Source: Psammoneis japonica (lineage: Eukaryota). Taken from it: a stretch of 64,000 nucleotides of DNA. This document shows, in pieces, positions 30,526 through 62,440 of the stretch; position 1 is the first letter of the stretch, and each line of letters begins with the position of its first letter. Below the pieces are notes generated by a model. It saw only the letters and a program-made list of their open reading frames with translations, had not been told where the DNA came from and searched no databases. The DNA lies in the NCBI GenBank assembly GCA_008632985.1, contig QPGO01000123.1, forward strand, positions 62,001 through 126,000, in the 5' to 3' direction. A program made the position numbers and the translations under genes.

Positions 30526-30699
30526 GGTAAAAATTGAAAATCCAATCAAGGCTGGAGAAGATGGTGGACATCAAAACGGACGGCGACGGACGGAGACTCG
30601 GCTCGACGGTCCAAGTACGCGAGAATCGCAGTGGCGGTCTGTCTGTACAGAGATTTCTACGCATGTTTTGTCCTTTCGTCCGTCACACACCTCCAATTG

Positions 30700-33440
30700 G
30701 AATCGGGTTGCGTCAATGTGTCTTTGGTGTTGTTTCTCACTTCTTGTCATTGTTTCAATGTTCATGCTGCAAGGTGTCTGCAGGGCTTGTTTTTTTTTTC
30801 ACACTGACTTGCTCCTCCGAGCTTGCAGTTGAATGATCAAAACTGCATTTCAGCTGGAGTTGATGATCAGAGTTGGGGCAGTGGTGATGTCTCTCAACAT
30901 CCCTGGGGCCAGTTTTGGCACTTCTTGTTTCATTTTCAATGGAAATTGCACAAGGAACATGACAGGCTTGGTTTTGTTGTGCAAAATTTCACTCCATTGA
31001 CACGGGTTCATTGGACGTCAAGGGGTGCCAAACAACGGCCAACGCAACTCAGCCAACCCTGACAAATTGGGGAAAAAAGATTGCGGACTCTTTTGGAGTG
31101 ACAAGTGCACTGCTTTCTAAATGTCAGGGTGGTTTTGAACTCCAGAGCAGACAAAATGGGAAGAGACATTTGGTGTCAAGACACATTTGGCGTGTGCTGT
31201 CACTTAAATTTGAAAAGGGCTGTGTGCCTTTTTCTGTCACATCAGGCCTTTTGTCCCTTCTCAACCACAATGGAGTCCAATGGCAAATTGCCGTGCATGC
31301 TTTGATGGAGGAAAATGGAGAGCCACTCAACTCGGGCAGGAGTGAGTGCACGTCCAAAGTCGAGTGTCTGTCCAAGCAAAGTCTGTCTCACACCTTTTTG
31401 CTTTGTCCATTCCTGAGTTGAAAATCTGCATTGTTGCTGATGCAAGTGAGGGCCAAAAACTCAACCACATTCTTCTCCTCCACAGCTCAAGCAATTGTTC
31501 AGCACCTGCATGCAGAGCACACTCTTGACAAAAAAGTGTGTGCCAGCACAGACCAGGCAGTCTGCAAAAATTGAAGCACCTTAAATGTTGTCTCCAGCTG
31601 GCCTGTCAGTTGTGCACTTCCAATGGCTCTGCAACCACATGCCTTGAGATGACAATTCATCCACTGCTTGACATCATTGGTGGGAACATTTGAAGCAGCC
31701 TCTGGTTGGCGAACTCTTGCTCCATTGACAAGTCACCCTGTCAAGAAAATGTCCATCAAGGTTGGTTTGCAGTTGTTTTTAGATGGCATGGTCTTGTTGT
31801 GCTGTTGCACAAATCAATCAGAAGTGTGACACACCATGCAACAACCCGGTTGTTTCAATGCAAAAAAATTCCCGTGCTTCCTCCGCAAAAGCATGGAAAG
31901 TGTGGTCACCAAAGAGGAGTGTGGGTCAGCACAACGTGTCAATGGAGGAGTGCAACATGGGTTGCATTCCCTGGACAATGCACCGGTGGGCAGTCTGTGT
32001 GTGCCAAGCAAAGTGAGGGTTGACGTTGTTCAGCGGCTGCACAGCACCTCTGACTTGTCACTCATTGCTGTTTGCAACCACCAAGAGCAGCACAACCACC
32101 ATCGAATCTGGCGCGCAAATTTCACACGCTGCACCACACACATGCTACGATGTTCAATGTGCAGCAAGCAGTTGCGGTGCGGTGCAATTTACAAGTCTGT
32201 CAGGATGCACAAGCTCCAGCACATGCAAATCCACAGCGTGCAATTCTGCGTGAGAGCATGTTGCCATGCGTGGTGCGAACACCGTCGATGCGCTCCAGCT
32301 CTGGGTGGGACCTCGCACTGCTGCACTGTGACATCAACAGTTTTTTGGATTGCGTCGTGTGTTGCGCACGTGCATTTCTGCGTGTTGTGTTCTCCGAAAT
32401 TGTTTCGTGCTCCCTGTTTTGCGAAGCCAAAGGCAGGCTTTCCATTTTCAACATTCATGAGAATGAAAATGCACTGGGTGCATTCTTCAATGTCTGAAGA
32501 ATGTGCCCAGGCAAACCATCAATGAATGATGTGCTTCAAGTGTGGAGGAGGAGATGAGTTCGTAAAATTGCCTCTTTTTCTGTTGGCGATCATTTGCATT
32601 TTCATTGCAGCACATGTTTGCTGCAGAGCTCGCACACAGAATTCTGTGGGCCCAATGTCACACGGAGTCCCGCCCCCAGGACTGGAGATGCCCACAGCAC
32701 AAGAATTTAATTGGTGGACACATTTGTCTTGAACATCAAACAAACGGCCAAGTTTGTGGTGCAATTGTGCCTCTTGCCATTTGACTTTTTTGCAAATGCG
32801 CCTGCCCTGCGCGATTCTTAAGACATTGTAGAATCGCGCTGTGACAAAAAATGTCAAAAGTTTTTGGACGGATCGCTCAACAAGTGCACCGTAAAATGAC
32901 ACAAAATGTCAAAAAAATCACGTAGAAATCTACGTGTGCGACATACGACGAGATTCAAAAAACTGTCGATGTCACAGTTCAGTGGTGCGAGGTCCCACCT
33001 GGACCTGGAACGCGCCTGGAACCCGTCCGTCAAACTTTGCACTGGATTTTACGGAGGCCTGCTTCAGGGTTCTGATGGGACAAACTTAAGGCATTCACAC
33101 AACAAGCTGATGGATGGCAAGATGATTGGACTTTCTGAACTTTTTTTGCACTGGAGACACGACACACACTGTCGCCAAAAATCGGCGACACAACGGGGTG
33201 GTGCATTGTCGCAACGACAGCGATGACAGCGATGTGTCCAAGAGTCTTTTGTCATCACAGACATTTAGTTTGTTAGGTTTAAGAACGTGTTCAGTCATGA
33301 AAGTCCCCAAGAGCAACCTCCGTTGGAAACCAAAAGGTCGAGCCAATGCCGAGCTCTGTTTTCAGACCTGTCACTGTCATGCATTCATTGTTGAACGATT
33401 GAGACTTCGTCAGGGGGGACTTTCTTTTTACACATTTGTG
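30700..33440. other. CpG/TpA-depleted hypermutated block 3 (TE-like, with internal inverted repeat)
   Basis: TA nearly absent; CG partly retained toward 32.1-33.4 kb. Confidence 0.75.
32291..33012. repeat. ~94-bp imperfect inverted repeat (32291-32384 / 32919-33012)
   Basis: Reverse complement of the left arm cacgcagaaatgcacgtgcgcaacacacgacgcaatccaaaaaactgttgatgtcacag... aligns without gaps to cacgtagaaatctacgtgtgcgacatacgacgagattcaaaaaactgtcgatgtcacag... Confidence 0.85.
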
Positions 33441-40452: not shown

Positions 40453-40533
40453 TGTCCTATGTGTGACAGGCCACCTAACTGTGCTTCAACTAATTTTTGG
40501 TCGAGTCAGGTGTCAAATGACCGGCTCTGTTAA

Positions 40534-40783: not shown

Positions 40784-40789
40784 TTAATT

Positions 40790-43700
40790 GTTGAGGTTAC
40801 CCACCCCTGCGTCAGTGGAGAGTGTGGTTGGTGATGTCATGGTGATGCATGCTCACGTCATGGCATTTTTGCATTTGTGTGAATGCAAAGACAACCACAC
40901 TTGCGCACAAATGCCAACAGCTGCAGGAAAAATCCTGAGCCCCATGGGATGCAGGAGATCACTTGTGCTTGTGCATGCACTCGCCTCAGTGCGAACATTC
41001 TCTTCTCAATGCATGTGATGACATCATCACACATCACACACAACCACACCCCACAGTGCCGCTGACGCAGGGGTGAAGGTCGCCGAGGCATGGCGCAAAA
41101 CCTGTTTGCGGTTTCGCGCAACCGGGCTGCGTGGACCAGGGACATTCCCGTTGCGCCACACACACTTCAGTGGACCCAGCCAGCAGAAGCAGCCACTCCA
41201 GCTGCTCGCTCTCTCTGACTCCAGCCAGCGGTCATTTGACACTTGCACCACCGATCTGTTGTCAACTGTCTTCAATCGAAAGTGCTTTCTTGTTGCAGCC
41301 ATGCCATCTCCAGGTTGCGGCGCCTTTCCACGTCATGTCACCAAGTGGGGAAAAAACGGCAGCTGGGGCCTTGTCTTCACTGCTCACTGCAGTGTCACAT
41401 GCTCAAATGTTTCAAGTTGACAAACGTTGGTGGTGATCCAAAGCATCAGTTGAGTGTTTTGGTCAGCCAATGCAAATGAGTGTGACCTCTTGAATTTCAG
41501 CTCATGGTCTCCAAAACCCCTCAACTGCTGTGTCAAGTGCCGCACATTTGCAGTTTGATCTTTTGACTTTTGCAGGATTGTGCCCACCATTTTGGCTGGT
41601 GATGACACCTGCCAGTTGTTCCCACAGGCAGTTGCATGGCCCTGGAGTGGTGCACAGCTCCCTGCTGACATGCCAGCTCCTGCACTTCATTGTCCTCAGA
41701 GGATCAACTGGCTGTCAAAGACAAGTGTGCTGTGCTGTGCTGTGCTGTGCTGCACACAATGTCTCTGCTGCCACCCTCTTTTGATCTGCCTGTGGGGCAA
41801 ATCTGGGTGCTGGGTGTTGCTGCAAATCAAAACTCATTGAGAGTCTTTCTGAGTGGTTTGCCACAGCCGCCACTTTCCTGTCTGACTTTGTTGTGGACCT
41901 GATTGCTCCAAAGCAATTTGCGACCTCTCTGGTGTGAACTTGTCCTTGGGGTTCAGCAGACATGGCCCCTGTCTCCACTGCAGTGACCATGCTGGATCAA
42001 GACTCAGCACTTCCATGGGTGACGGGACTTTGGAAAAAGTGGCTGCACGCACCCACGTCGCTCACAAAGCCTGCAAGCAACAGAGTGTGTCAATGCCCTG
42101 CTGCAGAACATGAGACAAAACAAACAACTGTGAGCAAGACAAGGGCAGGCAACAACACCCACAAAAACATCAGAACATGACACTGTGCCATTGGGAAGCA
42201 CAACTGCAACTCAACACACTCAAATTTCTCACCACAATGCTGCCGTGTGATTCATGTGACAGGGATTTTTGGCAGTGTTAAAAGATGATCATCTTTGAAA
42301 TGAGCACTGCAGAGATGAGCGCCATTTTTGCCATTGATGATTTTTGAATTTGTGTGCTCATCATTGGAAAAGCACCAGAAGGTGTGCTGCACGACTGGCC
42401 AGCAATTGATTTTGGGTGGATGGGCTGGTGATCCATGCGTCCACTCTTTCAAAGTCCCGTGACCCATTCAAGTGAGTGTGACAGAGATGACTGTGCCATC
42501 CACCTCCTGGACTGTGAAACAAAGGCCTTTGATGGTGTGTGTCCCTTGGAGTGGTCTGCTCCCTTGCTTCTTGTTGGCATGTTTCACACTTGGCTTGCAA
42601 CTTGACCCTCTTGCCTGGGCAGTTCAAAAGAACAAAGGTTGTCCATGCATGGACAGCTGCCAGTCCATTGTCCATCATGGCAGAGATGAGCACAAAAGCC
42701 CTGAACAGTTCCATCCACAGTGCAACAGATGGCAAGGTGGATGAGACACCACCAGTCTTTTTTGGTTCAGCAGTTGAGTGGCATTTGACACACACATGGA
42801 ACTTGTGCATCACTCATCCCCACAGCATTTCATTGAGCCTCACATCATCCCAACCTTGTGCCAGCAGAAGTCTGCATCTTTGTGGACTTGCTCATTGTCC
42901 CAGTCAGTCCAATCTTTGGTGGGTGAAACTCTTGCTCCAGGCAGCAACTCTTGTCAGAAATCTGAGAGCCCCCTTGCCTTGCACACCTCATTTGATGAGC
43001 ACCCTGTGCTCAATCTGGTCAAGACCTTGGCTCTCTTTCCTCCTCCTCTTGTTGCCACCAACAAATGTGATTCTGTGGTCCAAGCCAGTGCAGACTCTCC
43101 AAACATCAAGGGTGCAAAGATGTTGGATTGCCCCCTTTCTCTGGCACCATCTTTGTGGATGATGCAATGGCACACACCCCAGCTTGCATTCTTCAAGCCA
43201 GCAGCACTCAGCCACATGAAATTGGAAGCTGTCATCAGTTTCATCTTGCACTTCCTGGGGTTCAATGTTGATGCCTGCTTCATGGTTGTGACTTGGCTGC
43301 TGGAGAAACACATTGAGTTTTGCACCATCCTTGACAAGCTCTGGATGAAAAAAAACTGCCTGTGGCTCACCACACAAAATTGCTCAACTTCTTGGCTTTG
43401 CATGCAGTGCATCATCATGTGGGTGTGTTCCTCTCTCTCTCTCTCTCTCTCTGTGCAGCCACAGCTCTGAACAAGGCAGCCAGTGCTCCAGCTGCCAGAG
43501 CCTTTTCTGAGGGCTTCTGGTGTTGCAGACAGATCACCATGCCTGCTCAAGAACAACAAGATCTCCAGCTGCTGTGTGACAGAACTGTGGAGCCTTGCTT
43601 CACTCAGCTCTGGTCTCAGCACATTGGACACCTTGTCCCTTTTTAGACCCCACAGAGGAGGTGCTGTTGGGTGCACCCCATGCAGGCTGAGCAGCTGAAC

Positions 43701-45050
43701 CCTGCATTTTGATCTCATGTGGCAACTCAGCTGGGTGGGCTCATTGTGGCAGGGCTTCCCTGTGAAGCTCATTGAGGGCCAGTTGCAGGAGCCCCTTGAT
43801 GCATGGAGGGACTGCACGTCAATGTGCTGGAGTTTGCAGCCATCATCAACAACACCCATGTGGCCCTCATCTTCCACTGGTGGCGTGCAATTGGTGCCAG
43901 GGGACGGCTGCTCCACACATGGCAGGACAACACCAGTGTTGTCTCTTGGCTGCAACACATGAGTTGTCATTTGCACTGTCCCTGTTGCTTTTGCAACAAT
44001 GTCTGGCTTGCTTCCTTGGCATTCTTGCTGCTCAATGTTCAACCTGAGCATCCATTGTTGATGTGCATGCTCCCAATTTGCAACTGTGCAAGTGCACCAA
44101 GCACCCTCCAAGCATGGTTTGATGACTTCATTGCTCATTGGACAGGGTGCAACCATGGGCATGTCAGGTGTGCAAATGACTCATCTTTGGAATCTTGTGC
44201 CATGCACTTTTCACATGGCACTGGCTTGAGCAGCATGGCTTCAACAATGTCAGCCTTGCAAAATTAACTTTGGCACAGACTTTCCCCACACTGAGCTGCC
44301 ACATGTTGGGCCTGGCAGAAGGTGACTCTCTGTGCTGGAGCATTGACATTGTTTCAGAAGACTTGCTTGTTGGCCATCTGAATGCTGTCATTGCTTGATT
44401 TGAGTGTCACTTCAATGTTGATGCTCCCGTGCATCAGCAAGTAAGAGGCAAGACTCAGTTGTTTCCCTTCTGCAAAGAAACCACTTGTGAGTGTGGCACC
44501 TGGTGCAAGAAATGCAACAAGAAGCAGCCCATGTCTGGTCTCATGTGTCTGCACATGGAGCTTCAGCATGCCGAGCAGCTGGGTGTGTGTGAAGCTTGAT
44601 CTTTGGTGAGCTGAAAGAGGTCAGCAACGTGCACAAAAGCATGTTCCAGATGTTGTGAGAGGCTCAGAGCTGGTCTTTGAACCAAGGAGTGAATGAAGTC
44701 TGTCGGAGAGCGCAAGCAGATTGCACAAAAATCATTCCTGTGTGAGAGAGACAGTTCAGTCACTGTCAGCTGATTTGTCACAACATGAGACTACAATGAC
44801 AGCCATGCTGACAGTTGATTCCTGTCACCCCCTTGAATTGAATGGGTGAACATGAGGTGAAATCATGGAGTCATGTGAGAAGGGGGAAAGCCAAAGGGTG
44901 TGATTGACCATGACCCAAATCTTCTAAGTGACTTGAGTTTTTTTTTTAGAACATCTGTGAGTTGGCTTTCTGCCAGGATCCAGCCAAGGACATGATGACC
45001 ACACCACTGACCTTCTTGGACATGTTGAAAATGTTGCTTGATGTGTCATG
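40790..45050 (+). mobile_element. Decayed DIRS-like (tyrosine-recombinase) retrotransposon, copy A, recombinase part deleted
   Basis: RT-like PPVFFGSAVEWHLTHTWNLCITHP and LHFLGFNVD; RNase H-like LHVNVLEFAAIINN...DNTSVVSW at ~43810-43950. Hypermutated; limits approximate. Confidence 0.65.
41725..41753. repeat. (TGTGC)n pentanucleotide microsatellite
   Basis: gtgtgctgtgctgtgctgtgctgtgctgc. Confidence 0.8.
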
Positions 45051-47070
45051 TGTGCCTGGTCTGCTGATCATTGATGCTTGTCATCTGTGATGCACTCTGG
45101 CAGAGCAAGCCATGATTAGAGCTCTGCTTGACACCTGGTCTGTGGCAGCAAGAGTCAAAGACAGAGCAGTTGTTTGCTTGACAGGGCATCTCCAGTGGGC
45201 CAGAATGGTCCGCTGCTCAACAACATGACTGTCTCTCATCTGCTCCAGCAGCAATTGGTGCATGGAGACTCCCCTCCACCGGCACGTGGTTTTCAATTTC
45301 TTTGCACCACTTTTCATTGAGACGCAAATTTTGCAAGTCGCAAATTGATTTACAAAGACAAACAGCTCACATTTTTTCACAATGAAAGCACGTGCGAGGT
45401 CTCAGAGCACTTCATTTTTGGCTTCAAATGAGCAAATGCTGCTGTTTCAACAACCGCAGGTCTGCAAGTGACATGAAACAACACACCAATTGAATTGTCA
45501 TCATTGCAAAGAGCCATTTGATGTTTTGTTTGTGAGGAAAGGTGGTGCAATTGTCAAAAAAGGTCATTTTTGTTCAAATTTTGCGATGCGCTGGCATGAG
45601 TTGCAGTCATGAGAAGGCAGTTTCCTTTGAAAATGATGATTTCTTGTCCTTTCTCGTGCATCACATCTTTTCTCAATTGAAGCAAAAAGAACACCTGCAC
45701 CTTGAATGGCACCAGAGGATATTGCCTGTGTTGCAAAGATGATCTTTGAGGGTGACAAGGGTCATTTCTTGACTCGCCACATGGCGATTGTGCGGGGATT
45801 CAGAATTTGTCACAAATTCAGCAATGTTGCAAATTTTTCAATTCAGTGGCTCTCCTTTCTTGGCAAAGATTTGCCAGCACATGCCCTTTCCTTGGTGGCA
45901 CAGCGGCTCTTGGCAGCCAGTTTGCAGCTCCCTGCTTGCCTCTTTTTCACCATTGCCATCTGTCACTTCTGCCCGGCTCCCTTTCTCTCTTGTTGTGTGG
46001 CCTCTTTTGGTGCACCCCTCCAAGGTGGTGTGGCAGCTCTCTGGCTGGTGCTCCAACTCCAGGTTCTCCTGGATTTGGCATCACTGGCTCAAGGTCTGCT
46101 GGTGCTTTTGCCTTGCACTGCAACCAACCAGACAGCTTGTCCAAGAGTGCATCAGACACAGGAGGACAGCAGAGTTGAGAGCGACAGACTGCAGTCAACC
46201 TGTCTCGAATGTTTGGCGCAAATCAGAGCCAATGAGAGACAGTGTGGTCTCTGTGCCTCTCCCTGTGCAAATTGGGGGTTGACTGGCAGGATCTGCTTTT
46301 GCGTCACTCACTCAATGCAGAAGCAGTGCACTGGCCTGTGAGCACCACACAAGTCACAGCAGCAAGCTTGCCCCCATTTCTTGCCAAGTCTCGCTGTGTG
46401 ACTTTGTTGAGTTTAGAGAGAAAGAGAGAGAGAGAGAGAAAGAGAGAGAAGCCTCACTTGCAGCCAACACCACCACCCCTTTTGTGGCTCTCCAATTGGA
46501 GCTCCAATTCTGGGTTCCCTCAGATTTGGTGTCTCCAGCTCAAGGTTTGGTGCTCATGGCTTGTGCCACAACCAAGAGCTTGTCCAACAAGAGGCACATC
46601 ATCAGACACCAGAGAGGACAGCAGGGTTGAGAGCACCAGAGAGGGCAATTGACCCATTGATTGACAAGAGCAGCAGATGGCATTGACAACCATGACAGAG
46701 ACAGCAAGTGAAATTGCCCTGTTAATTGAAATTGAACACAAAGCGTGTGGTGAACCATGGGAAGATCAGACGAAGTGGAATTGCCTTCAGGCATTTGTCC
46801 AAAGATTGGAAAGTGTGAATTCCTTCAGTGACTGATGGACCTGTGACAATGGAGCAGCTGACGGACCCCCACAACCCACAATGCAACACAATGTCAACGC
46901 AACCGCAACAGTGCATGCAGTGAACATCGGATGTTGAAGCCAAGGTGCAGTCTTGCATGTTCCTCTTTTACTTGAACAAGACTGTTCTGCAGTGCCACAG
47001 CATTCTAGACATGCCTCTTTGGATTGAGCTCACGAGGCAAGAGGAAACAAACTGAAAAATTGAGCAAAGC

Positions 47071-47923
47071 ATGACAAACAATGACATGAGAGTCGACACG
47101 GAAGATGGCACAAAGAATGGTGCGCCTCCCCATTGGGAGGACAAGGAGCTTTGTCTTGATCAAGCCCCTGAATTGCCTTGACCACCGAAGCGATTCTTTG
47201 TGCCATCGTGGATGGCTGGACACTGCAAGATGTTCAATTTATTCAAATGATTCCTGGAGGTAACTTGCCCCACTTGCAAGAAAACCTTGATCGGTTCCGA
47301 ACGTCTTCCTTTTTCAGTTTCACAAAGAGCGCCTTTCACAAAACAGAGGAGCGAGAAGCCCTTGCTGACTGCACGCCAATGTCCATGTCGGCCGTGCCTC
47401 GATTGCTTCAAGAAGGAAAGCTCTCTGTTGATGTTGCCATCATCAAGGTGACTAAACTGCACAAGGGATTCTGCAGTTTGGGATTTGGAGTTGAGTGCAC
47501 ACATGATTTTATCAAATGCGCCAAAATTGCCGTGGCAGAAGTGACGACTCACATGCCATGGACCGAGGCGCATTCCAAGATCCATGTCAGCGAAATTGAT
47601 TGGTGGGTCATGGAGGACTCGCCTCTGAAAACTGTGCAAGAGCTCTGGCCAGACTGCATGCAGTCTGTTCCTTGTTCACAGGAGGTGCTGGCTGGCATTG
47701 GAAAGAACCTTGTGAAAGAGATTTCCAACGGCACCACACTCAAATTTGGTTTAGGACCAGTTCCACTTTCTGTGACCCGTTTCTTGCATCAGCGAAAGAA
47801 CATTGGCCTTCACACGGATGTGCTGGTGGAGGAACTCTTTCGCTTGCAGCTTGATGGTGTCATTGCCAACACAGCAAAGGCAGTTGATGCTGGCAGAACT
47901 GTCGTGGCACAAGCTTGCGGGAG
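47071..47923 (+). pseudogene. Truncated, hypermutated duplicate of the acetyl-CoA hydrolase/transferase gene
   Basis: Aligns to 53739-54631 with a ~37-nt deletion; every aligned Tyr codon has become Cys or His; truncated where DIRS copy B begins. Confidence 0.95.
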
Positions 47924-47949
47924 AGTCAAGAGTTGTGTGCATTTTTTTT

Positions 47950-50900
47950 TCAACAATCATTGGGTCGAGTCAGGTGCCAAATGACTGTCTCGCCATCTGT
48001 CAATTGTCAGGCATGGTGCTCTTCGCACCGCAACCAAGCAATGTCACAGCAATCAGAGCAGGCAGATGGAGACGACACTCCAAGGGCACACTCACCTGAT
48101 CTTTGGAAGCAAATCCTCTGGCTGGTCCTCGGATTTGCGGCAAACCAAACCTTTTTTGTGTCCCATGAATGCAAGGGTCACCCCCCCAAGCACTTGTGAC
48201 CAGACTTGGGGTTGATCCCAGACAACAACCAACATGACTGAGGGAGCAAGCACTTGAGCCAATTGGGCCAAAGTGCAGCTGAGAGTTTCACAGCTCGCCA
48301 CATTTGGCAGATGCACACAAGTCACAGCACTGGGGGTGGGCGGGCAAAAATTCAACCCCGCCCTCTGCAGGGTCTCGCCAGTGCTGCAAACAGCAGATCG
48401 GCGGGACTCAAAGAAGAAACCCTGGATCTGCCCTGCCAGGGGGGTGTTCCGAGCATGGGTTGCTTGGCAACAAAGCAATGCCATGATGTTGCGTGTGGTG
48501 GAAACTCATTGTCAAAAACAGAACACCATGTTGAGATGACAGGACAGCTGGTCCCCTCAATCCCTGGGCCCCAAAATCCAGTGGGAGCCACCCCAGTCCT
48601 TGATCCAAGAAGACAGCAACCCAGGAGACCTCTCAAAGGTTTCTAACAAGTGAAAATCAACAAATGGCATTGCACACTTCCCCTCTGTGACTCCTTTGGC
48701 AAGTGCCTCCTGCAAGATGCCATTGGTGCCTTGAGCCAGGAGCGTGCAAGTGCCCACACCAAGGACCAAGCTGAGTCTGAAGCCACCCGTGGATCAAGCG
48801 GAGTGGACACGGGTGACCTGCTCCAACAGCTCAGGGCTCACAAAGGTCTGTTTGTAAAAAGCTGTTTCCAACACCAAGTTGTCAGTGACAAAGAAGAGCT
48901 CTGCTCCTGTGAGATCTCCAGCTCCTCACTGTGCTCTTCTGGCATGCTTCCACTGTGTTGGTGATGCCCCCCCCAGCTGGGAAGAACTCTGACTCATCAT
49001 CCTTCACCTTCACCCAGATCCCAACTCAGTGCAACACCAAGCCATCAGGTTTCTGAACCAAGGATCCAAGTCCTTTCCCAGTGCATCACCAAATCTGGGC
49101 AGAACAACACAATTTTGTGCTCACACACTGTTGCGCATGCTGGTGTGTGGGGGGCAAACATCCAGTCCATGGCCTGCAGATCTCCCAGGAACTGGAGAAC
49201 TGCTTGGACCAAGGAGGGAGCTTGAAGGTCCCTTGAGATCACTCTGCAAGTCCTCTTGTCTGTCTCATGCCTGAGCCAACAACCAAATTCCTTGCCTGAA
49301 ATTGCCCATCCATCTGTCCAGCAATTTAGGTGCCATGAGTCCAAGGCAAGGTGCTGTCCCTTGTGGAAGGGATTTAGAAAGTTGCAGGTCATTGCCATCT
49401 GCCCCTCTTCCTCTCCAAGTCCTCTCACAATCAAAGGTTTGCAACTCCATTCCTTGCTCGTGTGCTTCCTTGCACACCAACAGTGGCAGACTCCTGACAA
49501 TCAACTTTTGGCCTTGTCCCACTTTGCAGCAGTCACAGTGACTGTCAAGTCCATGCCATTCAGCACCCCAAAGATGACCCAAGCCCAAGCACCAACTTGA
49601 TCCCCAGATGTTGGCATGAACTTGCACAAAGCATTTGGAATGCCCAAGCACTGAAGGTGCAAAGCCATTTGCCATTTGCCTTGTGACCCACCAAGCATTT
49701 TCTTTGCTGAATCCTGTGCCCTTTGAGTCATTCACAAATGTCCCAAGGTCTCCCGCAACAGCCTGGCTGACAGTGCTCACTCCCCTTCATTGCCCTGGGG
49801 AGCCATGGTTTGCAGGCAGGGTCTCGCAGCAAATTGAAGATCATCAAGATGAAACCCGTTGGATTGTCTGGGAGCACAGGATTTCCTCTGCAAATCTCCT
49901 TGGTCCAACAAAGCATCCTTGCAGCATCACATGGGCTTGGTTTCATGTGCCCATGAACAGGCAAACCCATCATTTGCAGCAGACTGCAGACCATGCATGC
50001 TTCTTGGACTCCCAGGAGGTGCTTGAGAACAGGCAACAAGTCAATGCCTGTGTGTGGTCCAATCTTCAGGAGTGGTCATGCACCACAGGACTGACTTTGG
50101 AGTTGGGAGAAAGAAGCCTGGGGCCCACAAGGCACAATTGAACCCCCCCCCCCAAGGATGCACTGTTGCAGACCATCCCAACAATGGCATGATCCAAATG
50201 GACAGCAGGAGAAACCACATTGAACCCAATGACAAACAAGATTGGCTGCATTGATGTGGTGCCACCAACCCAAGTGTGTGACAAGGACACTGTGTCAGCA
50301 CACCAACCAATCCCTGCCACCAACTTCTGGGCCCAAATCTCATGGCTGCCATGGGACGAGTTGCACATTCTGCCCAGCGGGCCAATTGCAGGAACCCCTC
50401 ATTGACGCACAGAGGTGCTGCATGTCAACATGCTGGAGTTTGCAGCCATTGTCATCAACACCCATGTGGCCCTCATTTTCCACCAGTGGCATGGCTGGAC
50501 AACACCAGCACCATCTCTTGGCTGCAACACATGAGCTGCCATTTGCATTGTCCTGTTTTGCATGTCTGGCTTGCTTCCTTCTCTTTGCTGCTGAATGTTC
50601 AACCTGGGCCTCTGCCATTGATCAATGCTCCCAACTTGCAACAGTGCAAGTGCACCAAGTCCCACTTCCAAGCTTGAATTGATGACTTCATTGCTCACTG
50701 GACAGGGTGTGACCATGGGTGTGTGAGGTGTGCAAATGACTCATCTTTGGAATCTTGTGCCTTGCACTTTGCTCATGGTGCTGGCTTGAGCAGCATGGCT
50801 TCAACAACATCAGCCTTGCAAAGCCAACTTTGGCACAGACTTTTCTTCCCATGCTGGGCTGCCACATGTTGGGCCTGGCAGAAGGTGACTCTCTGTGCAG

Positions 50901-52300
50901 TGTCAACATCATTTCAGAAGACCTTCTGATTGGCCATCTGAATGCTGCCATTGAATGTTGATGCTCCCATGCATCAGCAAAAATGAGGCAAGATTCAATT
51001 GTTCCCATTCTGCAAAGAAAAACCACTTGTCAGCATGGCACCTGGTGCAAGAAATGCAACAAGAGGCAGCTGATTTCTGGCCTGATGATGTGTTTGCACA
51101 TGGAGCTTCAGTGTGCCAAGCATCTGGGAGGTGTGCAAAGCTTGTGTCCTTGCTCCAGCCTTCACAAACTGGGACCACTTTTCCTTGTGTTCACCAGGTC
51201 TTGTCTTGCCAAATGTGCTCAGAGCAAAGTGCCCAAGAGGCAACATTTTGCTGCCATCCTGCACAATGCCAAAGCAGGTGAGTGGGATGGCATGCCCCTT
51301 GTGTTTGTTGTCACACAAGACTTTGTGTTTTGTGCATCCTCTGCCTGATCACCACAAACTTTTGCATGAAGCAGCAGATCTGCATGTTCTCTTCAGATGC
51401 AACAAGAGCAAAATGAATTTTGCCATTTTGCATCTCTGTCACAGTTGCCAGCAGGCAATTTTCTTGTGCCCTGTGCAAGCCACTCAAGCCACCATTCACT
51501 GTTCTTGGCACCAAGCTGCCCAAGAGTGCATTGCACCTTCTCTCCTTTGGGCTCATTTGCCTGTTGTGTTGTTGAGGGCAAGCACATCATCATCAAGTTT
51601 CTTTGTGACACCTGCCAAGCTGCACACTCTGACCTGGCCATCACCTGTGGCAGCATGTCAAGTGTTCAATGATGTCACACTCCAACAGATTGACAGTGGC
51701 AGTTGCACTTCTTAACACAGGCATTCCCATCAAGGACATGGCCTGCCATGGCACTAAAGCAGTCTCAGGCAGGTCTCACTGACAGGATGAAGAGTGATCA
51801 AGTCTTGAGCCAGAGAGCAAAGTCAGCTTGAACGAGCTAAAAGAAGTCAATGCTGTGCAAAAAAGCATGCTCTAGATGTTTTGAGAGATTCAGAGCTGGT
51901 GTCTTAACCAAGCAGTGAACAAAATCTGTCGAGGAGGAGAGCAAGGAGCAGCTTTCACAAAAATCATTCCTGAGTGAGAGACAGTTCAGTCACTGTCAGC
52001 TGATTTGTTGCAACATGAGGTTCTCATGGCAACCATGCTGTGACACAGTTGATTCCCATCACCCTCTTTTAAGTTGAATGGGTGAACATGAGGTGAAATC
52101 AAGAAGTTGTGCAAGAAAGGAGAAGCCAAAGGGTGCAATTGACCATGACCCAAATCTTCTCAGCAACTTGAGTTTTTTGCAAGGACATCTGTGAGTTGAT
52201 GCCAGGATAAAACCAAGGACATGATGACCACACAAGTTGCCTTGTCAGACACATCAAAAAACATTGCACAATGTGCCATGTGCAGCTGGTGTGCTGATTG
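47950..52300 (+). mobile_element. Decayed DIRS-like retrotransposon, copy B, with tyrosine-recombinase remnant
   Basis: RNase H-like segment 50400-50550 matches copy A. LHVLFRCNKSKMNFAILH...LCPVQA at ~51380-51490 resembles a DIRS recombinase. The 5' sequence ggtcgagtcaggtgYcaaatgac also occurs at ~40499. Confidence 0.6.
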
Positions 52301-53738
52301 TTGATGCTCATCTGTGATGCACTCTAACAGAGCAAGCCTTGATCAGAGCTCTGCTCAACACCTGGTCTGTGGCAGCAAGAGTTGAAGACAGGACATTTGT
52401 TTGCTTGACAGGGCATCTCCAGTGTGCCAGAATGGTCCATTGCTTGACAACATGACTGTCTCTCATCTGTTCCAACCAGTGCCTGGAGAGGCCCCTCTGC
52501 TGGCACATGTGAGGTGGTGGTCTTCAACTTTGCACCACTCTCCTTTCTTGGCCCAGATCTGCCAGCAAACATGCCCTTTGCTTGGTGACACAGTGGCTCT
52601 TTGCAGCCACTTTGCAGCTTCCCACTGGCCTCTTCTTTCACTGTTGCCATTTGTCACTTCATCCTTGCCCCCTTTCTCTCTTGTTGTGGGGCATCTTGCA
52701 ACCCTCTCCAAGGTGACAACTCTCTCTGCCTGGTGCTCCAATTCTGGGTTCTCCTGGACTTGACATCTCTGGCTCAAGGTCTGTCATTGCTTCTGCCTTG
52801 TGCTGCAACCAACCAGATGGCTTGTCCAAGAGTGCATCAGACACAGGAGGATGGCAGAGTTGAGAGCGACAGATGGCAACCGACCTGTTGAATGTTCGGC
52901 ACAAATCGGGTGCCAATGAGAGACAGTGGTCTCTGTGCCTCTCCCCATGCAAATTGGGGGTTGACTTTCAGGATCTGCTTTTACATCACTCACTCAATGC
53001 AGAAGCAGTGCACAGGCCTGTGAGCACCACACAAGTCACAGCAGCAAGCTCGCCCCCATTTCTTGCCAAGTCTGGCGCTGTGTGTTTTTGTTGAGTTTCA
53101 AGAGAGAGAGCCTCACTTGCAGCCAACGCCACCCCCATTTTGTGGCTCTCCAATCAGAGCTCCAATTCTGGGTTCCCTCAAATTTGGTGTCTCTGGCTCA
53201 AGGTTTGGTGCCCATGGCTTGCGCCACAATCAAAGAGCTTGTCCAACAAGAGGCACATCATCAGACACCAGAGGACAGCAGGGTCAAGAGCACCAGAGAG
53301 GGCAATCGACCCATTGATTGATGAGAGCAGCAGATGGCATTGACAACCATGACAGAGACAACAAGTGAAATTGCCATGTCAATTGAAATTGAACACAAAG
53401 CGTGTGGTGAACCATGGGAAGATACCGGCAGGACGAAGCACAATTGCAATTGCCTTCAGGCATTTGTCCAAAGGTCGGAAAGTGTGAATCCCTTCAGTGA
53501 CACTGACGGACCTGTGACAATGGAGCGGCTGACGGACCCCCACAACGTAAAACATATATAATGTCAATACGCAACCGCAACAGTGCAGTGAGCATCGGAT
53601 GTTGAAGCCGAAATGCAGTCTCGTATGTTCCTCTTTTACTTGCACAAGACTATTCTGCGGTGCCACAGCATTCTAGACATGCCTCTTTGGATTGAGCTCA
53701 CGAGGCAAGACGAAACGAACTGAAAAATTGAGTAAAGC

Positions 53739-55692
53739 ATGACAAATAATAACATGAGAGTCGACACGGAAGATGGCATGAAGGATGGTGCGCCTGCTCC
53801 CAGTTGGGAGGACAAGGAGCTTCGTCTCGATCAAGCCCCTGAATTGATAAAGAATGGTAATCACATCTACATTGGCAGCACCGCCTCGACCGCCGAAGCG
53901 ATTCTTCGAGCCATCGTGGATAGCTGGACGCTGCAAGATATTCAAATTATTCAAATGATTCCTGGAGGTAACTTGCCCCACTTGCAAGAAAACCTTGATC
54001 GGTTCCGAACGTCTTCCTTTTTCAGTTTCACAAAGAGCGCCTTTTATAAAACAGAGGAGCGGGAAGCACTCGCTGACTACACGCCAATTTCAATATCGGC
54101 CGTGCCTCGATTGCTTCAAGAAGGAAAGCTCTCTGTCGATGTTGCCATCATCAAGGTGACTAAACCGCACAAGGGATTTTGCAGTTTGGGATTTGGAGTT
54201 GAGTGCACACGCGATTTTATCAAATACGCCAAAATTGTCGTGGCAGAAGTGACGACTCACATGCCATGGACCGAGGGGCATTCCAAGATCCATGTTAGCG
54301 AAATTGATTGGTGGGTCATGGAGGACTCGCCTCTGAAAACTGCGCAAGAGCTCTGGCCAGACTATATACAGTCTGTGCCTTATTCACAGGAGGTGCTGGA
54401 TGGCATCGGAAAGAACCTTGTGAAAGAGATTTCCGACGGCGCCACACTCAAATTTGGTTTAGGACCAGTTCCACTTTCTGTGACCCGTTTCTTGCATCAG
54501 CGAAAGAACATTGGCCTTCATACGGATGTGCTGGTAGAGGAACTCTTTCGCTTGCAGCTTGATGGCGTCATAACTAACACAGCAAAGGCAGTTGATACTG
54601 GTAGAACTGTCGTGGCACAAGCTTACGGGAGTCGCGAGTTATATGAATTTCTCGACCGCAATCCAGCTATTGAGTTCCAGCCGAGCAGCTACGTGAATGA
54701 CTACCGAATCATGGGACAAATCGAAAATCTTGTCGCGATTGTGGACGCTCTTAAAGTTGACTTGACAGGTCAGGTGGCTACAGACTCGATTGCGCACAAC
54801 TTTTACGGCAGTGTTTGGAGTGTCGATGACTCCATTCGTGGTGCTCGATTCTCACGTGGCGGGAAGCCGATTGTTGCGTTGCCCTCTAAGAGTTTACGTG
54901 GGCGCTCCAACATTGTGCTTGCATTGCCACCAGGTACAGGAGTCTCCATTACTCGATCAGATGTGGAGTACGTTGTGACTGAGTACGGAACTGCTTATCT
55001 TTATGGTAAACCGATTCGAGAGCGCTGCTTGGCACTGATCGACATTGCTCATCCGGACTTTCGAGATGAACTTCTTATGGAAGCCAAGCGCCGCCACTTT
55101 GTTTCAGAGTCCCAACCCGGGTATTCCTTTAGTAGTACGTATCCAAAAGAGATCGAGTGTACACACACAACTCGGAATTTCAAGACTGTCTTTGTGCGAC
55201 CAATCAAGGCGGTTGATGAGGACATGCTTCGAAGCTTCTTTCACAAGTTGTCTGATCATTCTGTCTATCTGCGTTACTTTCGCAAAATGCCTTCCTTGCC
55301 CCAACGGATTCTACAAAAGTTTGCCGATGTTGACTATTCAAGCGACATGGCTTTAATTGCACTTCACCCCCACGATTCACCAACCCCGATCTCGTTGGAA
55401 TCGCTCAGTGGATTTCCGATCCGCACGACGGAATTCCAGAAGTTGCGTTTCAGGTGCGAGACGATTGGCAAGGACAAGGATTGGGCTTGTTTCTTTTCTC
55501 TATTTGGTAGAAGTATCCAAATTCTTCGGTGGTGTCACTCATTTCAAAGCTGATGTGCTAGTTGACAACAAAGCCATGCGAAGTGTGTTTGAGAAGTCTG
55601 GCATTGAATACACTAGCCGTACCGAGTTTGGTGTATGTATCTATGTGTTCACCATCCCCAAGCGAAAAACGGATCTTCTTGCTATAAAGTAG
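53739..55692 (+). CDS. Acetyl-CoA hydrolase/CoA-transferase fused to a C-terminal GNAT acetyltransferase
   Basis: IYIGSTAS, DVAIIKVTKP..GFCSLG, DGATLKFGLG, IGLHTD, VDLTGQV, SRGGKPIVALPS, VVTEYG, IAHPDFRDEL, then RPIK..DE..L..FF..LS..SVYLRYF and EVAFQVRDDWQGQG. One apparent indel near 55390. Confidence 0.9.
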
Positions 55693-58249: not shown

Positions 58250-60780
58250 GGCCCTAGACATGAAAGCGTTGAAATGCAATGAGCAACAGGCAACAGGCGT
58301 AGGCAACCTCTTCCGTACCACTTACAGACCTCCCAGTTGGGAGTGGCAGCAGCAGGCATGCAACAGGAGTTGGCACGGAAGGCGCTGCATGCTGTACTTA
58401 CCGGTACACTGCAGGCGGGGCAGGACGAGGGAAAGAAGGGGCGCGCAAGACAGCGCGTAGGGCTGGAGCCAGCAGGGGAGGGGAGAGTGTGGGCGGCGGA
58501 ATGATGAACAATGTTGCATCCAAGAGTCTGCACTGGTGCAGCCCACTGAGAAGGAGAGGCAGAGCGGTGGGAACTGCCAAAGCGATCAGCAGCAATTTGT
58601 TGCCAGGTGAAATCAGCGGCAGGGGTGGGAGAGGGAGAGAGCGCAGGAGGCAGGAGGCATCGAAGGACGCAGTTGAGTGCTGCTGTGGGGAGGAGGAATC
58701 GGGCCAGGGAGGCTTGGGCTGAGAGGAGAAGGAGGGCAAAGAAGAGACAAAGAGAAATCAATGAAAGAAGTGACCAAGAACACCAAGACAATCAACAGCA
58801 AATGGAAGAAGAAAGATCCCAGCGGTGTTGAGGGGGGTTGAACAGCAAGAGAGACATCAGAGGAGAGGAGGCAGAAGGACCCAAAAACTTTGATCTCGCG
58901 CTTGTGTGGTGCACCTCAGCAAAAATGGGAGAAGAAGGGGCAGGCAGACCAGGAGGAGCTTTGCAGAGATGGAGGCAGGAGGGTGGAAATGCCAACATTG
59001 GCTGGGCAAAGGAGAGGCCGGTGTGGAAGGAGATTTGCGGGTTCAAGGTGAACATCACTGGGGGAGTGACAGAGCTTGGAGAGAGGACCAAGGGTGTGTG
59101 CAAGGACAAAGACAGCACCTCAAATGCCATTGGAGAGCTTGGACTTGTGACTGTGATTGCGTGCAAAAACATGATCGCCAAAAGCATCTGGTGGGGTGGC
59201 ATGACTGCAAGGACAAGGAGAGTTGACAAGGGAGGAAGCACCAGAAGATGAAGCTTGTGTTGGTGGACAGCCACAGTGCACTCATTGGAGGCAAGGTGGG
59301 AGACAGCAAAGCATTGGCAGAGGGGGCAAAGCGGGAGACTGGTGAGAGGGGACAGAAGAGAAGGAAGAGCAGTGTGAATGTCAGAGGGGGCACTGGCGCA
59401 AGAGCAGCAGCAGAAATTGTGCACTGTTGATGGGCATGGTGGAGCCATCAAGCCAGGCCAGGGAGTGTTGCCATCTTGACCAAGGCAGAGAGAGTTGGAG
59501 CAGCCAAAGATGAATCAGAAGAAAGGGCAGAAGTGAAATGGTGAAAAAGAGTGCAGAGACAGAGGTGGGAGCATGGATTGTTGTTCCAAGAGGAGAGGGA
59601 CAATTGAAAGCATCAAGGGAGCTCAAGGGTGTCACCAGAAGGAAGTTGAATCCTGTGGGTGGTGAAGCAGAGGGAGCAAAGAAGGGAGATGAGGAATGAT
59701 GGGATGGCAGCAGCAGCAGGATCCCAAAGGCCGAAGCCACCAAGAGCAGTGGGCAAAAAGGCATTGGCAAGAGAGAAGGAAGGAAGGGGATCCAGATGAG
59801 CAGAGGCATGACAGAGGAAGCAGTGGATGGCAGCAAGGAAAAAGTCTTGAAACAGAGAAGTCTAGAGGAAGGGATCAGGCAGGTCATCAGGGTCAAAGTT
59901 GCAGCAGAAATTGGCACCAAGAAGGCAAGCGGAGGAGGGAACAAAACAATGCCTAAAAAGCTGAGCCTGTGTTTGCTTGTCATGAAGGTGAGACAAAAGT
60001 TTGTCAACTTTGGAAGAGAGGGAGGAGGAAGCATTCAAAAGGAAGGAGTTGGTGAAGGTCTGGGAACCAAGGGGGGCAGCCTTGAGTGAAGCCTTCACAT
60101 TGGGTGAAAGAGCTCCAGATGGAATTGGGATGGCAATGCCAGCACTCATTAGAGTTCTGATGCGCAATGTCAAAAAGAAAGGGAGCAAAGGATGAAAGGA
60201 CTCTTGAGATGCCAGGATGTCATGGCAAGCATGATGAGAGACTTCATCAATCATGTTGAAAAGGTCAAGGAGAAGCAGGACTTTGGGGGGAGAAGCCAAA
60301 GAGAGACAATGCTGAGTGTTGGTGTGAGCAGAATGAACAAGGTGGTCAAGGCTGCCCTCGACACCAACTCCAAATTGACCATCAGGAAGGAGGAATTTGG
60401 CAAACTCAGAGAGACACCAGAGAGCTGCGCCAACACCAATCGGATGGAGCTCATCAAGATCAGCAGGATCTCTGTGAAGTGCTGCAACATGGTTGAAGAG
60501 AGGAAGGGATGAATGGAAGGTGGCACTGATCCATCAAGGACAGAAAGAAGGAGGGCTTGAAGGGAGGAGAAGCAAGGGCATTGAGAAGAGCAAGAGGGTG
60601 ACTTGGCAGAACACAAAGCACAAGCTTTGAGAAGATCAGCAGAGCCAGCAAAGACCCCAGCAGCAGCAGCTGGTTTGCATCCACTGAGAGCCAACAGAAG
60701 AGATTTGGGAGAAAGAGTGACACAGGGTCATTGTTGGGGGCAGAGGAGGAGCAAGGGGAAGGAGCTGAAGTGAGGTTGGG
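58250..60780 (-). mobile_element. Decayed non-LTR retrotransposon (RT, CRE-like)
   Basis: LHPIGVGAALW (RPIGVG-like), LLLLDLFNMIDEVS, QCEGFTQGCPL on the minus strand; strong purine skew; hypermutated. Confidence 0.65.
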
Positions 60781-62440
60781 TGGGTGGAGGCAGGGAGGAT
60801 AAAGTTCGAGCATTGAAGGGAGACTCTCCAGAGTGTCCAGAATGATCTTCCTCAGGACACCATCAAGACTTGGCACACTCCTTTCCATTTCAAAGCTGAC
60901 CATGGCACCACCTTTGAAGCCTCCCAAACCACAAAAAGATGCAGAGAAGGCAAAGCTCTTTTTCACAACCAACTTCTTCTTGAAAAAGAACATTGCATGC
61001 TGCTGCCAACCCAGAAACTGCAGCAGCACACAAGGTGGTGCAAACCAGCCATGGCCTCTCAGAGTGGCTCCAGCTTGTTGTTCTCCTGACAAATTGAGAG
61101 GCAAAGGTAAAGATTTCAATGTGCAGCAGCTGTGCATCTTGTGAGCCTTCTGTGCATCTTGGCACAGACTTGGGTGACACTCAAAAGAAAAGATTCTGGT
61201 GGTGGCCCTGTGAATGCTGATGATGTGATGTTGAGAGAGGTGAGAAAAAGATGCCGGAGCAGCATGGGGCCAAGCGCCAAATTGGCAGCACATCATCTCA
61301 ACACAGTTGGAATGAGAGGGTTCAGCATTCTGGAATTGTGAGTGTGCCACATGAACAGACCAAACTTAAGAACTGGCTGAAACTGCTTGCATGCTCTCCA
61401 TGCGGCAAGGCTGAGAGAGCTGTTTGAATGCTTGGAAGACACAAACAACAAGAAGGAAGAAATGAGAGCCACCCAGCTGCAAGAGCTGCTTCCAGCCACA
61501 AAGGCAGAGCTGCAAGAGAAGAATGGCAACATCAGGAAACTGCACACAAGAAGGGCTTGTGTGCCATGTTGTTTTTGTTGTGACTGTGCAAGTGGAGGCC
61601 AGCTCCCCTGCCTCAGCTTCAAAGTTTAAAGCAACGATCCAGTCTTTGGAATCAGGTGACACTGCAACTGAAGAAGTGGTCCAAGAGGTGTCAAAGTGGC
61701 ACACTCTGCCTGGTGCAGGAGGTGCAGCAGATGGTGGTGGGGAGGACAAGGGCAGTGGCCAGGGGAGTTGTGTGAATGGCAAAGTTGGGGGTGCCGCCGT
61801 TCCATCATCTTCTTGTTGTGATGAGTGGTCCAGACTGGTTTAGCCACAAGAAGTGTTTTTTAAAAGTGTTTGGTGTTGTCAAACAAAATGTTTTTATCTT
61901 TCATTCTGTTGTCCATGCGACTGTCTCCCACGGGCTCAGTGCCATGTTCATGGTGCACAATGTGACCCAAGCTCATCAAAATTCAGTGGAGCTTGTGGCT
62001 TGTCAAAATCTCCATGTCAAGCAGCAAGTGCTGGCCAGCTCCATGCACAGCCACCACCAGTGTCACCTGGGCTCGTGCTGTGCAGCCCAGTGCCACGAGA
62101 GCACCCCGCACTGCCATCGCGCCACGGTCGTGTGACACGTGCCTGCCACTGCGGTGCACCATGACGTGTGCCGCAGCCAATTCAACTCCCCATGCCCAAC
62201 TCCCCACTGCAGCAACCAGGAGGGTGCTGCGGTGCTGTGCATGGGGGTTGCACCCACAGATCCACTAACTTGGACACACAGCAGAGTGGATCATCATCTG
62301 GGTTCTCCACCAGCAGATTGCACGTTGCCGCGCACCACGTGGTGAAGACCTCCCCACAGGCTGTGGGGAGAACCCAGGCAGTGATTGCCACTGTCTGGAA
62401 CAAGTTGAACAAGTTAGAAAAGACGGCGTTGGCATGATGA
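58500..62440. other. CpG/TpA-depleted hypermutated block 5
   Basis: TA almost absent; CG reappears first at both edges. Confidence 0.85.

Follow-up and report, generated by a model that had tools for sequence, protein, structure and literature searches.

The 64-kb stretch of contig QPGO01000123.1 considered here (positions 62,001 to 126,000; hereafter the window, in which position 1 is the first letter) contains sharply bounded non-genic domains of 2-13 kb in which a DNA-level transition process has turned the dinucleotides TpA and CpG into TpG or CpA. The process acts in place, on either strand and by independent single events, and it strikes anything that lies within a domain, including fragments of ordinary cellular genes. 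TpA decays at about three times the rate of CpG and over a slightly wider area, and the TpA arm of the process prefers a pyrimidine (Y) behind the target adenine, which converts T-A-Y to T-G-Y on each strand. With moderate confidence, we explain the domains by a domain-restricted TpA mutator, probably an adenine deamination, that works on top of the decay of methylated CpG. As far as our searches show, only one earlier study, a preprint on the alga Bigelowiella natans (Mettrop et al., bioRxiv 2026; 10.64898/2026.01.13.699255), describes A>G hypermutation at TpA in nuclear DNA. All results described below refer to one 64-kb window.

An intact gene and its decayed copy

The direction of the changes emerges from the comparison of an intact gene, here called I, with a decayed copy of its 5' part, here called D:

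53739..55553, plus strand: intact gene I, coding for an acetyl-CoA hydrolase/transferase fused to a GNAT-type C-terminus; used as the reference for the ancestral state
46831..47944, plus strand: decayed copy D, consisting of the promoter and the first ~300 codons of gene I, with a 37-base deletion and small insertions and deletions (indels)

Gene I matches the Pfam families AcetylCoA_hyd_C (2.6e-49) and AcetylCoA_hydro (3.4e-15), and its composition is normal, with observed/expected ratios (O/E) of 0.54 for TpA and 0.96 for CpG between positions 54001 and 55000. Its diatom homologues share 62-81% identity with it; the named ones, from Nitzschia, Cylindrotheca and Seminavis, reach 62-64%, and the best match, at 81%, carries no name. 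These homologues agree with the diatom host that had been assumed in a preliminary description of this DNA. Copy D still matches AcetylCoA_hydro (7.6e-10), and its translation contains no tyrosine at all. A single metagenome scan with gene I yielded one 2.2-kb contig without flanks.

Positions 45850-47944 (D) and 52538-54650 (I) were aligned globally with MAFFT, and the fates of the bases were counted by context with I as the reference. Between positions 53739 and 54631 of I, 21 of the 26 TpA sites have changed in D (12 to TG, 8 to CA and 1 to TT), as have 16 of the 44 CpG sites (11 to TG and 5 to CA). The remaining substitutions number 18, of which 7 affect A, 4 affect T, 6 affect G and none affects C, the last one being the change of TA to TT. 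The preliminary description had arrived by hand at about 20 of 26 TpA and about 16 of 44 CpG sites turned into TG or CA, next to 15-20 other substitutions, and the MAFFT counts of 20, 16 and 18 bear this out. Its statement that the loss of TpA exceeds that of CpG holds as well: the decay per site in D amounts to -ln(5/26)=1.65 for TpA and to -ln(28/44)=0.45 for CpG, i.e. TpA decays about 3-fold faster, and the value of 1.65 per TpA site compares with the 18 other substitutions in ~750 other bases. Over a longer span of I (53545-54650), 28 of 36 TpA and 21 of 56 CpG sites read TG or CA in D.

All four types of transition depend on the context. The exchange of A for G was found at 12 of the 26 A within TpA versus 1 of the 202 A in other contexts (Fisher p=4e-12; odds ratio ~170), and that of T for C at 8 of 26 sites in TpA versus 3 of 183 elsewhere (p=2.5e-6). 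Likewise, C>T was found at 11 of the 44 C within CpG versus none of 152 other C (p=2.5e-8), and G>A at 5 of 45 sites in CpG versus 4 of 171 elsewhere (p=0.02). The preliminary description had allowed for the possibility that A>G is not enriched at TpA, which the alignment contradicts. Moreover, the dinucleotides that arise from the process are nearly stable themselves, as only 3 of 63 CA and 2 of 63 TG of I have changed in D. Gene I has retained its synonymous and 5'-flanking TpA and CpG sites, of which D has lost 81% and 36%, respectively (53739-54631).

Homologous proteins show that the intact copy carries the ancestral state. For this comparison, the best 45 of 120 listed homologues of gene I were aligned and 30 non-synonymous differences between D and I were scored. 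At 26 of the 30 differences, most homologues that have either residue side with I; at Y114, P143, V167 and G180, it is present in all 45 homologues and the residue of D in none. D has the more frequent residue at 2 of the 30 differences, both in the N-terminus, where the alignment is poor, and at another 2 the homologues show neither residue. Since the residues of I prevail among these homologues, TA and CG are ancestral and TG and CA derived, and the reverse polarity, which the preliminary description had named as a possible objection, does not hold.

Strand symmetry and sequence context

The products in D are 27 TG and 22 CA, which are intermixed (26 runs versus 25.3 in shuffles), and the changes at TpA are 15 A>G and 13 T>C, likewise intermixed. 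The domains as a whole contain 2,769 TG and 2,879 CA. The strand-symmetric and run-free outcomes exclude processive editing of one strand as well as an edited RNA intermediate.

Counted per strand, the frequency at which the A of TpA has mutated in D depends on the following base: 9 of 13 sites followed by C, 12 of 26 followed by T, 3 of 12 followed by G and 3 of 19 followed by A. T-A-C is therefore the most mutated trinucleotide in D (9/13), and A>G changes affected 21 of 39 TAY sites versus 6 of 31 TAR sites, in which R is a purine (p=0.006). The TpA sites that survive in the domains relative to the DNA outside independently show this preference for TAY. Survival is 0.0066 for RTAY (2 versus 453), 0.04 for mixed contexts and 0.31 for YTAR (50 versus 241); per strand, the trinucleotides survive at 0.017 (TAT), 0.026 (TAC), 0.092 (TAG) and 0.19 (TAA). 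The most enriched product in the domains is TGC. For CpG, the lowest tetranucleotide survival was found for TCGA (0.11) and the highest for GCGC (0.58). The preceding base had no significant influence on C>T changes at CpG in D (A 0/24, C 2/19, G 8/28, T 11/39; TCG versus the rest, p=0.08), and the pattern in D disagrees with the ranking of the residual CpG sites of the domains.

Five domains depleted of TpA and CpG

In a 1-kb profile of the window, blocks with O/E values of ~0.03 for TpA, ~0.1 for CpG and 1.7-2.0 for TG and CA contrast with DNA in which TpA lies at 0.4-0.7 and CpG at ~1. A two-state segmentation placed domains at ~8.6-13.4, 21.4-23.2, 30.7-32.8, 40.8-53.4 and 58.7-62.1 kb, with 65 TpA and 208 CpG in 23.4 kb versus 1,489 TpA and 2,248 CpG in the 40.5 kb outside. 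The GC content is equal in and out of the domains (0.47-0.51), because the TpA arm and the CpG arm cancel each other in their net effect. Delimited by the depletion of TpA, the five domains comprise 25,618 bases (~40% of the window) with O/E values of 0.05 for TpA, 0.21 for CpG and ~1.75 for TG and CA. They are listed here without strand:

8539..13462: domain 1, TpA-depleted, contains a second decayed cellular gene
21333..23190: domain 2, 8 TpA in 1.86 kb
30662..32808: domain 3, of which the right part (32101-32808) keeps CpG (TA 4, CG 30)
40802..53543: domain 4, the largest, 33 TpA in 12.7 kb, holds copy D
58464..62410: domain 5, 11 TpA in 3.9 kb, purine-rich on the plus strand

The edges of the domains lie ~100-350 bases from the open reading frames (ORFs) of the neighbouring genes, and the right edge of domain 4 is located 196 bases upstream of the gene I start codon (ATG). 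DNA beyond the domains and beyond all ORFs of at least 130 amino acids (aa), which amounts to 11,048 bases, has O/E values of 0.71 for TpA and 0.96 for CpG. The ORFs themselves contain less TpA than this outside DNA (TpA 0.50, CpG 0.97). A genome-wide neutral equilibrium was considered and ruled out, as non-coding DNA that lies outside the domains shows no depletion.

The two arms of the process are nearly, but not fully, coextensive. When TpA and CpG were segmented separately, almost all of the CpG-depleted DNA (23,270 bases) fell within the TpA-depleted DNA (25,954 bases); 2,854 bases are depleted of TA only and 170 bases of CG only. Two islands illustrate the former class, both listed without strand:

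41058..41359: TpA gone and CpG normal (TA 0, CG 20, GC content 0.59), inside domain 4
47088..47625: TpA lost and CpG kept (TA 4, CG 22 in 538 bases), the young gene part of D

Thus, the loss of TpA is separable from that of CpG, and the TA-only islands together with the ~3-fold faster decay of TpA in D suggest that the TpA arm is separate from the CpG arm.

Support from sequencing data

Of the words sampled from positions 45800-55600, 82% are present in a deep sequencing run, here called X1. The contigs of X1 cover the domain at a word depth of ~55, which equals that of the flanking genes, and they reproduce block stretches of 0.7-1.2 kb with 1-9 other letters, mostly transitions. As the X1 contigs reproduce the sequence of the blocks, a base-calling artefact, in which modified bases are miscalled so that TA and CG end up as TG or CA in the assembled sequence, is unlikely. 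Random independent calls could also yield positions that read TG in one copy and CA in another; moreover, X1, whose platform is not recorded, may stem from the very sample that was assembled. However, contigs built from exact 31-letter words at a depth of ~55 would not arise from error-prone signal-level reads, and a site read as TG on one strand and as CA on the other would break the contigs every few dozen bases. D also contains indels and unrelated substitutions, and neither the clean TAY preference nor the nesting of the domains is expected from miscalls. All in all, we regard such an artefact as very improbable.

Differences between alleles or near-copies in X1 were examined at 40 of 119 listed places, which fall into 32 groups, including 28 that are located in blocks. 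These 28 comprise 13 groups with CG versus TG or CA, 3 with TA versus TG or CA, 4 with TG versus CA, and 8 others. Three block groups (46923, 46942 and 47070) read as copy I does and probably stem from misplaced contigs of the paralogue. These differences hint that the process is recent, and we do not lean on them as evidence.

A further run, X2, which is labelled 'DNA?', was found only on parts of genes and on one miniature element (40534-40746, 53769-55697 and 56491-58000). It behaves like a transcriptome, and between 53769 and 54277 its contigs are identical to gene I. X2 lies on none of 41202-53221, and this lack of cover was not used as evidence.

A 4.2-kb duplication with two decaying copies

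D and I belong to a direct duplication of 4.2 kb, which self-BLAST detects in three pieces of 77.6-87% identity:

43776..47944, plus strand: upstream copy (D unit)
50379..54650, plus strand: downstream copy (I unit), of which the first ~3.1 kb are decayed too and the last 1.1 kb are normal

The preliminary description had rightly recognised a decayed and an intact copy in 47071-47923 and 53739-54631; their extent was underestimated, as the duplication is larger and the pattern recurs in five domains. Where both copies lie inside the domain, 51 positions in 2,381 aligned bases read TG in one copy and CA in the other (19 in 752, 19 in 686 and 13 in 943 bases). Such TG/CA doublets are expected when a shared CG or TA was hit on opposite strands in the two copies, so both copies must have kept decaying after the duplication. 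In the gene part, in which I is normal, there are 2 doublets in 1,107 aligned bases, and a control pair in normal DNA, which is 24.6% diverged, has 2 in 597 bases. This control consists of two inverted, related ORFs (25695-26292 and 27137-27749) that are 75.8% identical and belong to no Pfam family. Taking twice the doublets plus the singly kept sites as an estimate, the shared upstream 3 kb contained at least ~46-69 TpA and CpG sites per kb at the time of duplication, versus a density of ~92 per kb in normal DNA. Over the 1.1 kb of its duplicated gene part, I is 93% identical to D and shows no decay, not even at synonymous and 5'-flanking sites.

The D unit also contains an insertion without counterpart in the I unit (45311-45850). 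The stretch 45409-46009, which is present in D only and itself free of TpA, has a word depth of ~986 in X1, and this depth suggests ~18 copies of a short repeat.

A single machinery that responds to duplication, like fungal repeat-induced point mutation (RIP), could account for both arms, in that duplication marks both copies and one deaminase for A and C erases TpA and CpG at the YpR step. This is in line with the number of sites that the shared 3 kb still had when it was duplicated, after which both copies decayed, and with the partial copies of cellular genes in two of the five domains. In addition, the available text of the B. natans preprint cites reports that ADAT2 enzymes deaminate A and C in DNA (10.64898/2026.01.13.699255), and DNMT4, which is related to RID, is described in a passage of another study as widespread in diatoms and as having no known function (PMC9998398). 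Nevertheless, the gene part of I escaped in spite of its near identity to D, most of the block DNA is single copy by word depth, and the multi-copy miniature elements at 40090-40790 keep normal TpA and CpG, though they are short. Furthermore, the islands without TpA but with CpG indicate that the arms can uncouple. We therefore consider a duplication-triggered machinery for both arms to be improbable.

The duplication also bears on two explanations that dispense with a mutator of DNA, namely ADAR-type hyperediting of RNA followed by reverse transcription and insertion, and selection against words with TA or CG. ADAR usually favours U before the edited A, as stated in the accessible preprint text (10.64898/2026.01.13.699255), and many RNA viruses are reported to avoid both UpA and CpG (PMC3829696). 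However, editing of one strand would have left only A>G or only T>C, whereas both are intermixed in D, and both copies continued to change in place after the duplication. In the case of selection, D is a dead, frameshifted fragment that offers selection no object, and an O/E of 0.05 goes far beyond known avoidance. Both explanations appear extremely unlikely.

Content of the domains

Fragments of cellular genes that have decayed are present in two of the five domains. Besides copy D in domain 4, domain 1 contains the 3' part of a gene for a fusion of fumarylacetoacetase and glutathione S-transferase (GST), where residues 358-703 of P0121 align with the minus strand at 10612..9302. Frameshifts and in-frame stops interrupt this match, which is spread over three frames (joint E-value 3e-35), and tyrosines are replaced by cysteine or histidine. 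The lead to P0121 was a weak FAA_hydrolase match in Pfam (E-value 4.6e-4, below the cut-off). An intact copy of the fumarylacetoacetase-GST gene was not found within the window.

For the domains as a whole, 270 of 279 stop-free ORFs of at least 55 aa were scanned with Pfam (120 of at least 90 aa and 150 of the 159 of 55-89 aa); the nine left out overlap D. No viral or transposon domain was detected in these 270 ORFs. The only Pfam matches in the blocks are copy D of the acetyl-CoA hydrolase, the sub-threshold FAA_hydrolase and a sub-threshold DUF2076, and the last was taken as a chance match (16.8 bits at a cut-off of 38). An ORF of 408 aa (42957-44180, minus strand) has no relatives among 1.84 billion representatives, and two further long ORFs of the domains gave no usable match in the Atlas. 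The stop codons TAA and TAG occur 2.4 times per kb of strand in the blocks versus 16.5 times outside, and we read the long ORFs of the domains as a by-product of the loss of these codons. Most of the domain DNA has the word depth of ~55 and is thus mostly single copy.

In domain 5, the plus strand of 58700-61400 has a GC skew of 0.25-0.41 and an AT skew of 0.28-0.38 without being a tandem repeat. The same stretch carries, on the minus strand, a series of ORFs that are 217-301 aa long, lie in different frames and have no Pfam match; one of them was tried in the Atlas and gave no usable match.

Possible agents of the two arms

The preliminary description had postulated a second mutator that causes A>G changes at TpA on both strands of non-genic DNA, apart from the decay of CpG. 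The sequence context, the polarity, the strand symmetry and the TA-only islands all fit this proposal. In the mechanism that we favour, the CpG arm would be the ordinary deamination of 5-methylcytosine on silent DNA with CpG methylation of the DNMT5 type. Indeed, in Phaeodactylum, DNMT5a maintains CpG methylation on transposons (PMC9998398). In the TpA arm, which would be separate, adenine in DNA would be deaminated to hypoxanthine, probably by an enzyme, and the hypoxanthine would be copied as G; the deaminase could be recruited to the same silent chromatin that undergoes CpG decay. The TpA hypermutation of B. natans may be a process of this kind, too. A deaminase of the TadA/ADAT kind is an attractive candidate, given that U precedes the target A in its natural substrate and that a TadA variant is described as preferring 'YAC' (PMC13109818), although action of such an enzyme on double-stranded chromatin DNA in vivo is unproven.

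The TpA arm could also go back to a TpA-specific base modification that is mispaired or misrepaired, either an oxidation of T by an enzyme of the TET/JBP type or N6-methyladenine at the palindromic TA, with the CpG arm again being decay of 5-methylcytosine. A palindrome of 2 bp that is hit equally on both strands is what a symmetric, maintained mark such as CpG methylation would produce; the near coextension of the TpA and CpG domains points in the same direction, and independent, unclustered events fit slow spontaneous decay better than the bursts of a processive enzyme. On the other hand, the asymmetric preference for TAY would have to be assigned to the writer of the mark or to a repair step, and we know of no such TpA mark in diatoms. 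Weighing these points, we hold a base modification to be rather unlikely. Besides a deaminase and a modified base, a repair error is a further candidate agent of the TpA arm.

Several points weigh against the combination of a TpA mutator, probably a deaminase, with methyl-CpG decay. The enzyme, the base modification, the methylation and the silencing of the domains are all putative, and the evidence comes from a single window. The TAY preference is derived from 27 events in D and from residual counts, for which the ancestral composition is uncertain. YTAR includes stop codons and occurs less often in coding DNA; this inflates its apparent survival, but hardly 47-fold. The proposed link of TAY to TadA/ADAT enzymes goes back in part to a single review passage on a TadA-8e variant (PMC13109818). 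The sequencing support is strong, but it is not independent if X1 is the assembly's own sample. Finally, a role in defence against foreign DNA is without support in the window, since no viral or transposon domain was detected in 270 of the 279 ORFs of the blocks.

Neighbouring genes and elements

The genes between the domains are ordinary and include Deltex/RING, PARP-WWE, a mitochondrial carrier, UbiA, bromodomain, SNF2, GH3, a GTPase and a signal recognition particle (SRP) receptor. At the left end of the window, two genes are arranged head to head: one encodes Deltex-C/RING (278-1552, minus strand), and the other combines an ANF-receptor ligand-binding region with a PARP catalytic domain and WWE (1915-4671, plus strand). 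The fusion of ANF-receptor and PARP is an unusual receptor-PARP architecture, and it adjoins a likely ubiquitin-ligase partner.

Positions 40090-40790 look like nested, piggyBac-like miniature inverted-repeat transposable elements (MITEs) with the termini CCCTGCTTAT... and ...ATAAGTAGGG, beside TTAA at 40530 and 40787. In X1, they have a word depth of 850-1550 versus ~55 for single-copy DNA and are thus multi-copy. Some X1 contigs skip 354 bases (40095>40450) or 254 bases (40528>40783), which suggests empty-site alleles. The MITEs adjoin the large depleted domain, yet their TpA and CpG are normal.

Implications

The occurrence of the same signature in a diatom-like genome means that the process is peculiar neither to one alga nor to viral inserts. 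The window constrains it to act on DNA, in place, strand-symmetrically and without clustering, with a preference for T-A-Y, within domain boundaries, and separably from yet co-localised with the decay of CpG. For genome annotation, it matters that the domains inflate the lengths of ORFs through the disappearance of TAA and TAG, turn tyrosine into histidine or cysteine and obscure where the DNA came from. In evolutionary terms, the process provides a means of inactivating duplicated or inserted sequences at constant GC content.

A more far-reaching idea is that diatoms possess a heritable genome-defence mutator with a chemistry unlike that of RIP, in which silent chromatin over duplicated or inserted DNA recruits a YpR deaminase that acts on A in T-A-Y, and perhaps on C in CpG, and thereby erases both dinucleotides. 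If this were true, only TpG and CpA would be left, the GC content would not change and two of the three stop codons would be removed; we regard it as unlikely in this full form. If the process of B. natans were homologous, it would be an ancient system of the supergroup of stramenopiles, alveolates and Rhizaria (SAR) and not the curiosity of one alga. Diatoms can be transformed, and resources for mutation accumulation and methylome analysis exist. Thus, the enzyme should be identifiable.

Comparison with known systems

In fungal RIP, as known from Neurospora, C>T changes at CpA create TpA. The domains of the window share with RIP that context-dependent transitions inactivate non-genic or duplicated DNA and leave a dinucleotide footprint, and over the upstream 3 kb both copies of the duplication decayed afterwards. 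In contrast to RIP, TpA is destroyed here and CpA and TpG are the end products, in agreement with the opposite direction to RIP that the preliminary description had noted. Moreover, unlike in RIP, the gene part of one copy is untouched, most of the affected DNA is single copy and the events are not clustered by strand. The decay of methylated CpG resembles the window in that CpG turns into TpG or CpA on both strands of non-genic domains, with C>T restricted to CpG among the C of the gene pair. However, it explains only the smaller arm, as it cannot give A>G at TpA, and TpA has been lost where CpG was kept.

Deaminases offer further parallels. APOBEC3/AID and ADAR produce strand-coordinated clusters on single-stranded DNA or RNA. 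The window has in common with them an inactivation that would be based on deamination within a short sequence context, whereas its events are strand-symmetric, unclustered, in place and on A in DNA. The natural members of the TadA/ADAT family are tRNA enzymes, and their natural substrate has U before the target A. The chemistry of TadA, ADAT2 and the TadA-derived base editors would give the A>G changes found here, and T precedes the target A here as well. A TadA-8e variant prefers A in 'YAC', according to a passage of a review (PMC13109818), and this motif resembles the T-A-C of the window. In contrast to the 'YAC' preference, the old domains have lost T-A-T almost to the same extent as T-A-C.

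The closest known case is B. natans. In the available text of the preprint, a mutation accumulation experiment is described that yielded 231 mutations in two integrated viral regions; 230 of them were A>G or T>C and without exception affected TpA, with a rate of ~6e-7 per site per generation, in a range of about 1e-7 to 1e-6 (10.64898/2026.01.13.699255). The same text describes 124 clusters depleted of TpA and enriched in CpA and TpG, and it proposes an ADAT2-like deaminase (Mettrop et al., bioRxiv 2026). The earlier statement that no mechanism of this kind had been described is therefore outdated. Like in B. natans, the changes in the window are A>G and T>C at TpA (20 of the 21 changed TpA sites of D became TG or CA), they are confined to discrete regions, and the footprint combines depletion of TpA with enrichment of CpA and TpG; many of the affected sequences are not annotatable in either case, as far as the available preprint text goes. 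This text contains no mention of diatoms or stramenopiles, and our literature searches found no report of the TpA signature in diatoms.

The differences from B. natans concern the host, the depth, the accompanying decay and the targets. B. natans is a chlorarachniophyte, whereas the host here is a diatom-like stramenopile. The depletion is deeper here, since the O/E of TpA is 0.05 and often ~0.03, compared with a cluster cut-off of Rho <=0.43 and a value of 0.45 for the region of a nucleocytoplasmic large DNA virus (NCLDV) in the available preprint text. CpG is erased in the same domains here (16 of 44 sites in D; O/E 0.21), while the preprint text at hand does not deal with CpG and presents a spectrum of almost only AT>GC changes. 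A preference for a pyrimidine at +1 is evident here, whereas none appears in that text (10.64898/2026.01.13.699255). Unlike the viral targets of B. natans, the targets here include fragments of cellular genes, with no viral or transposon domain in the 270 of 279 block ORFs scanned with Pfam. Thus, compared with B. natans, the window adds another supergroup lineage, a deeper erasure, the coupling of TpA loss to CpG decay and fragments of cellular genes as targets.

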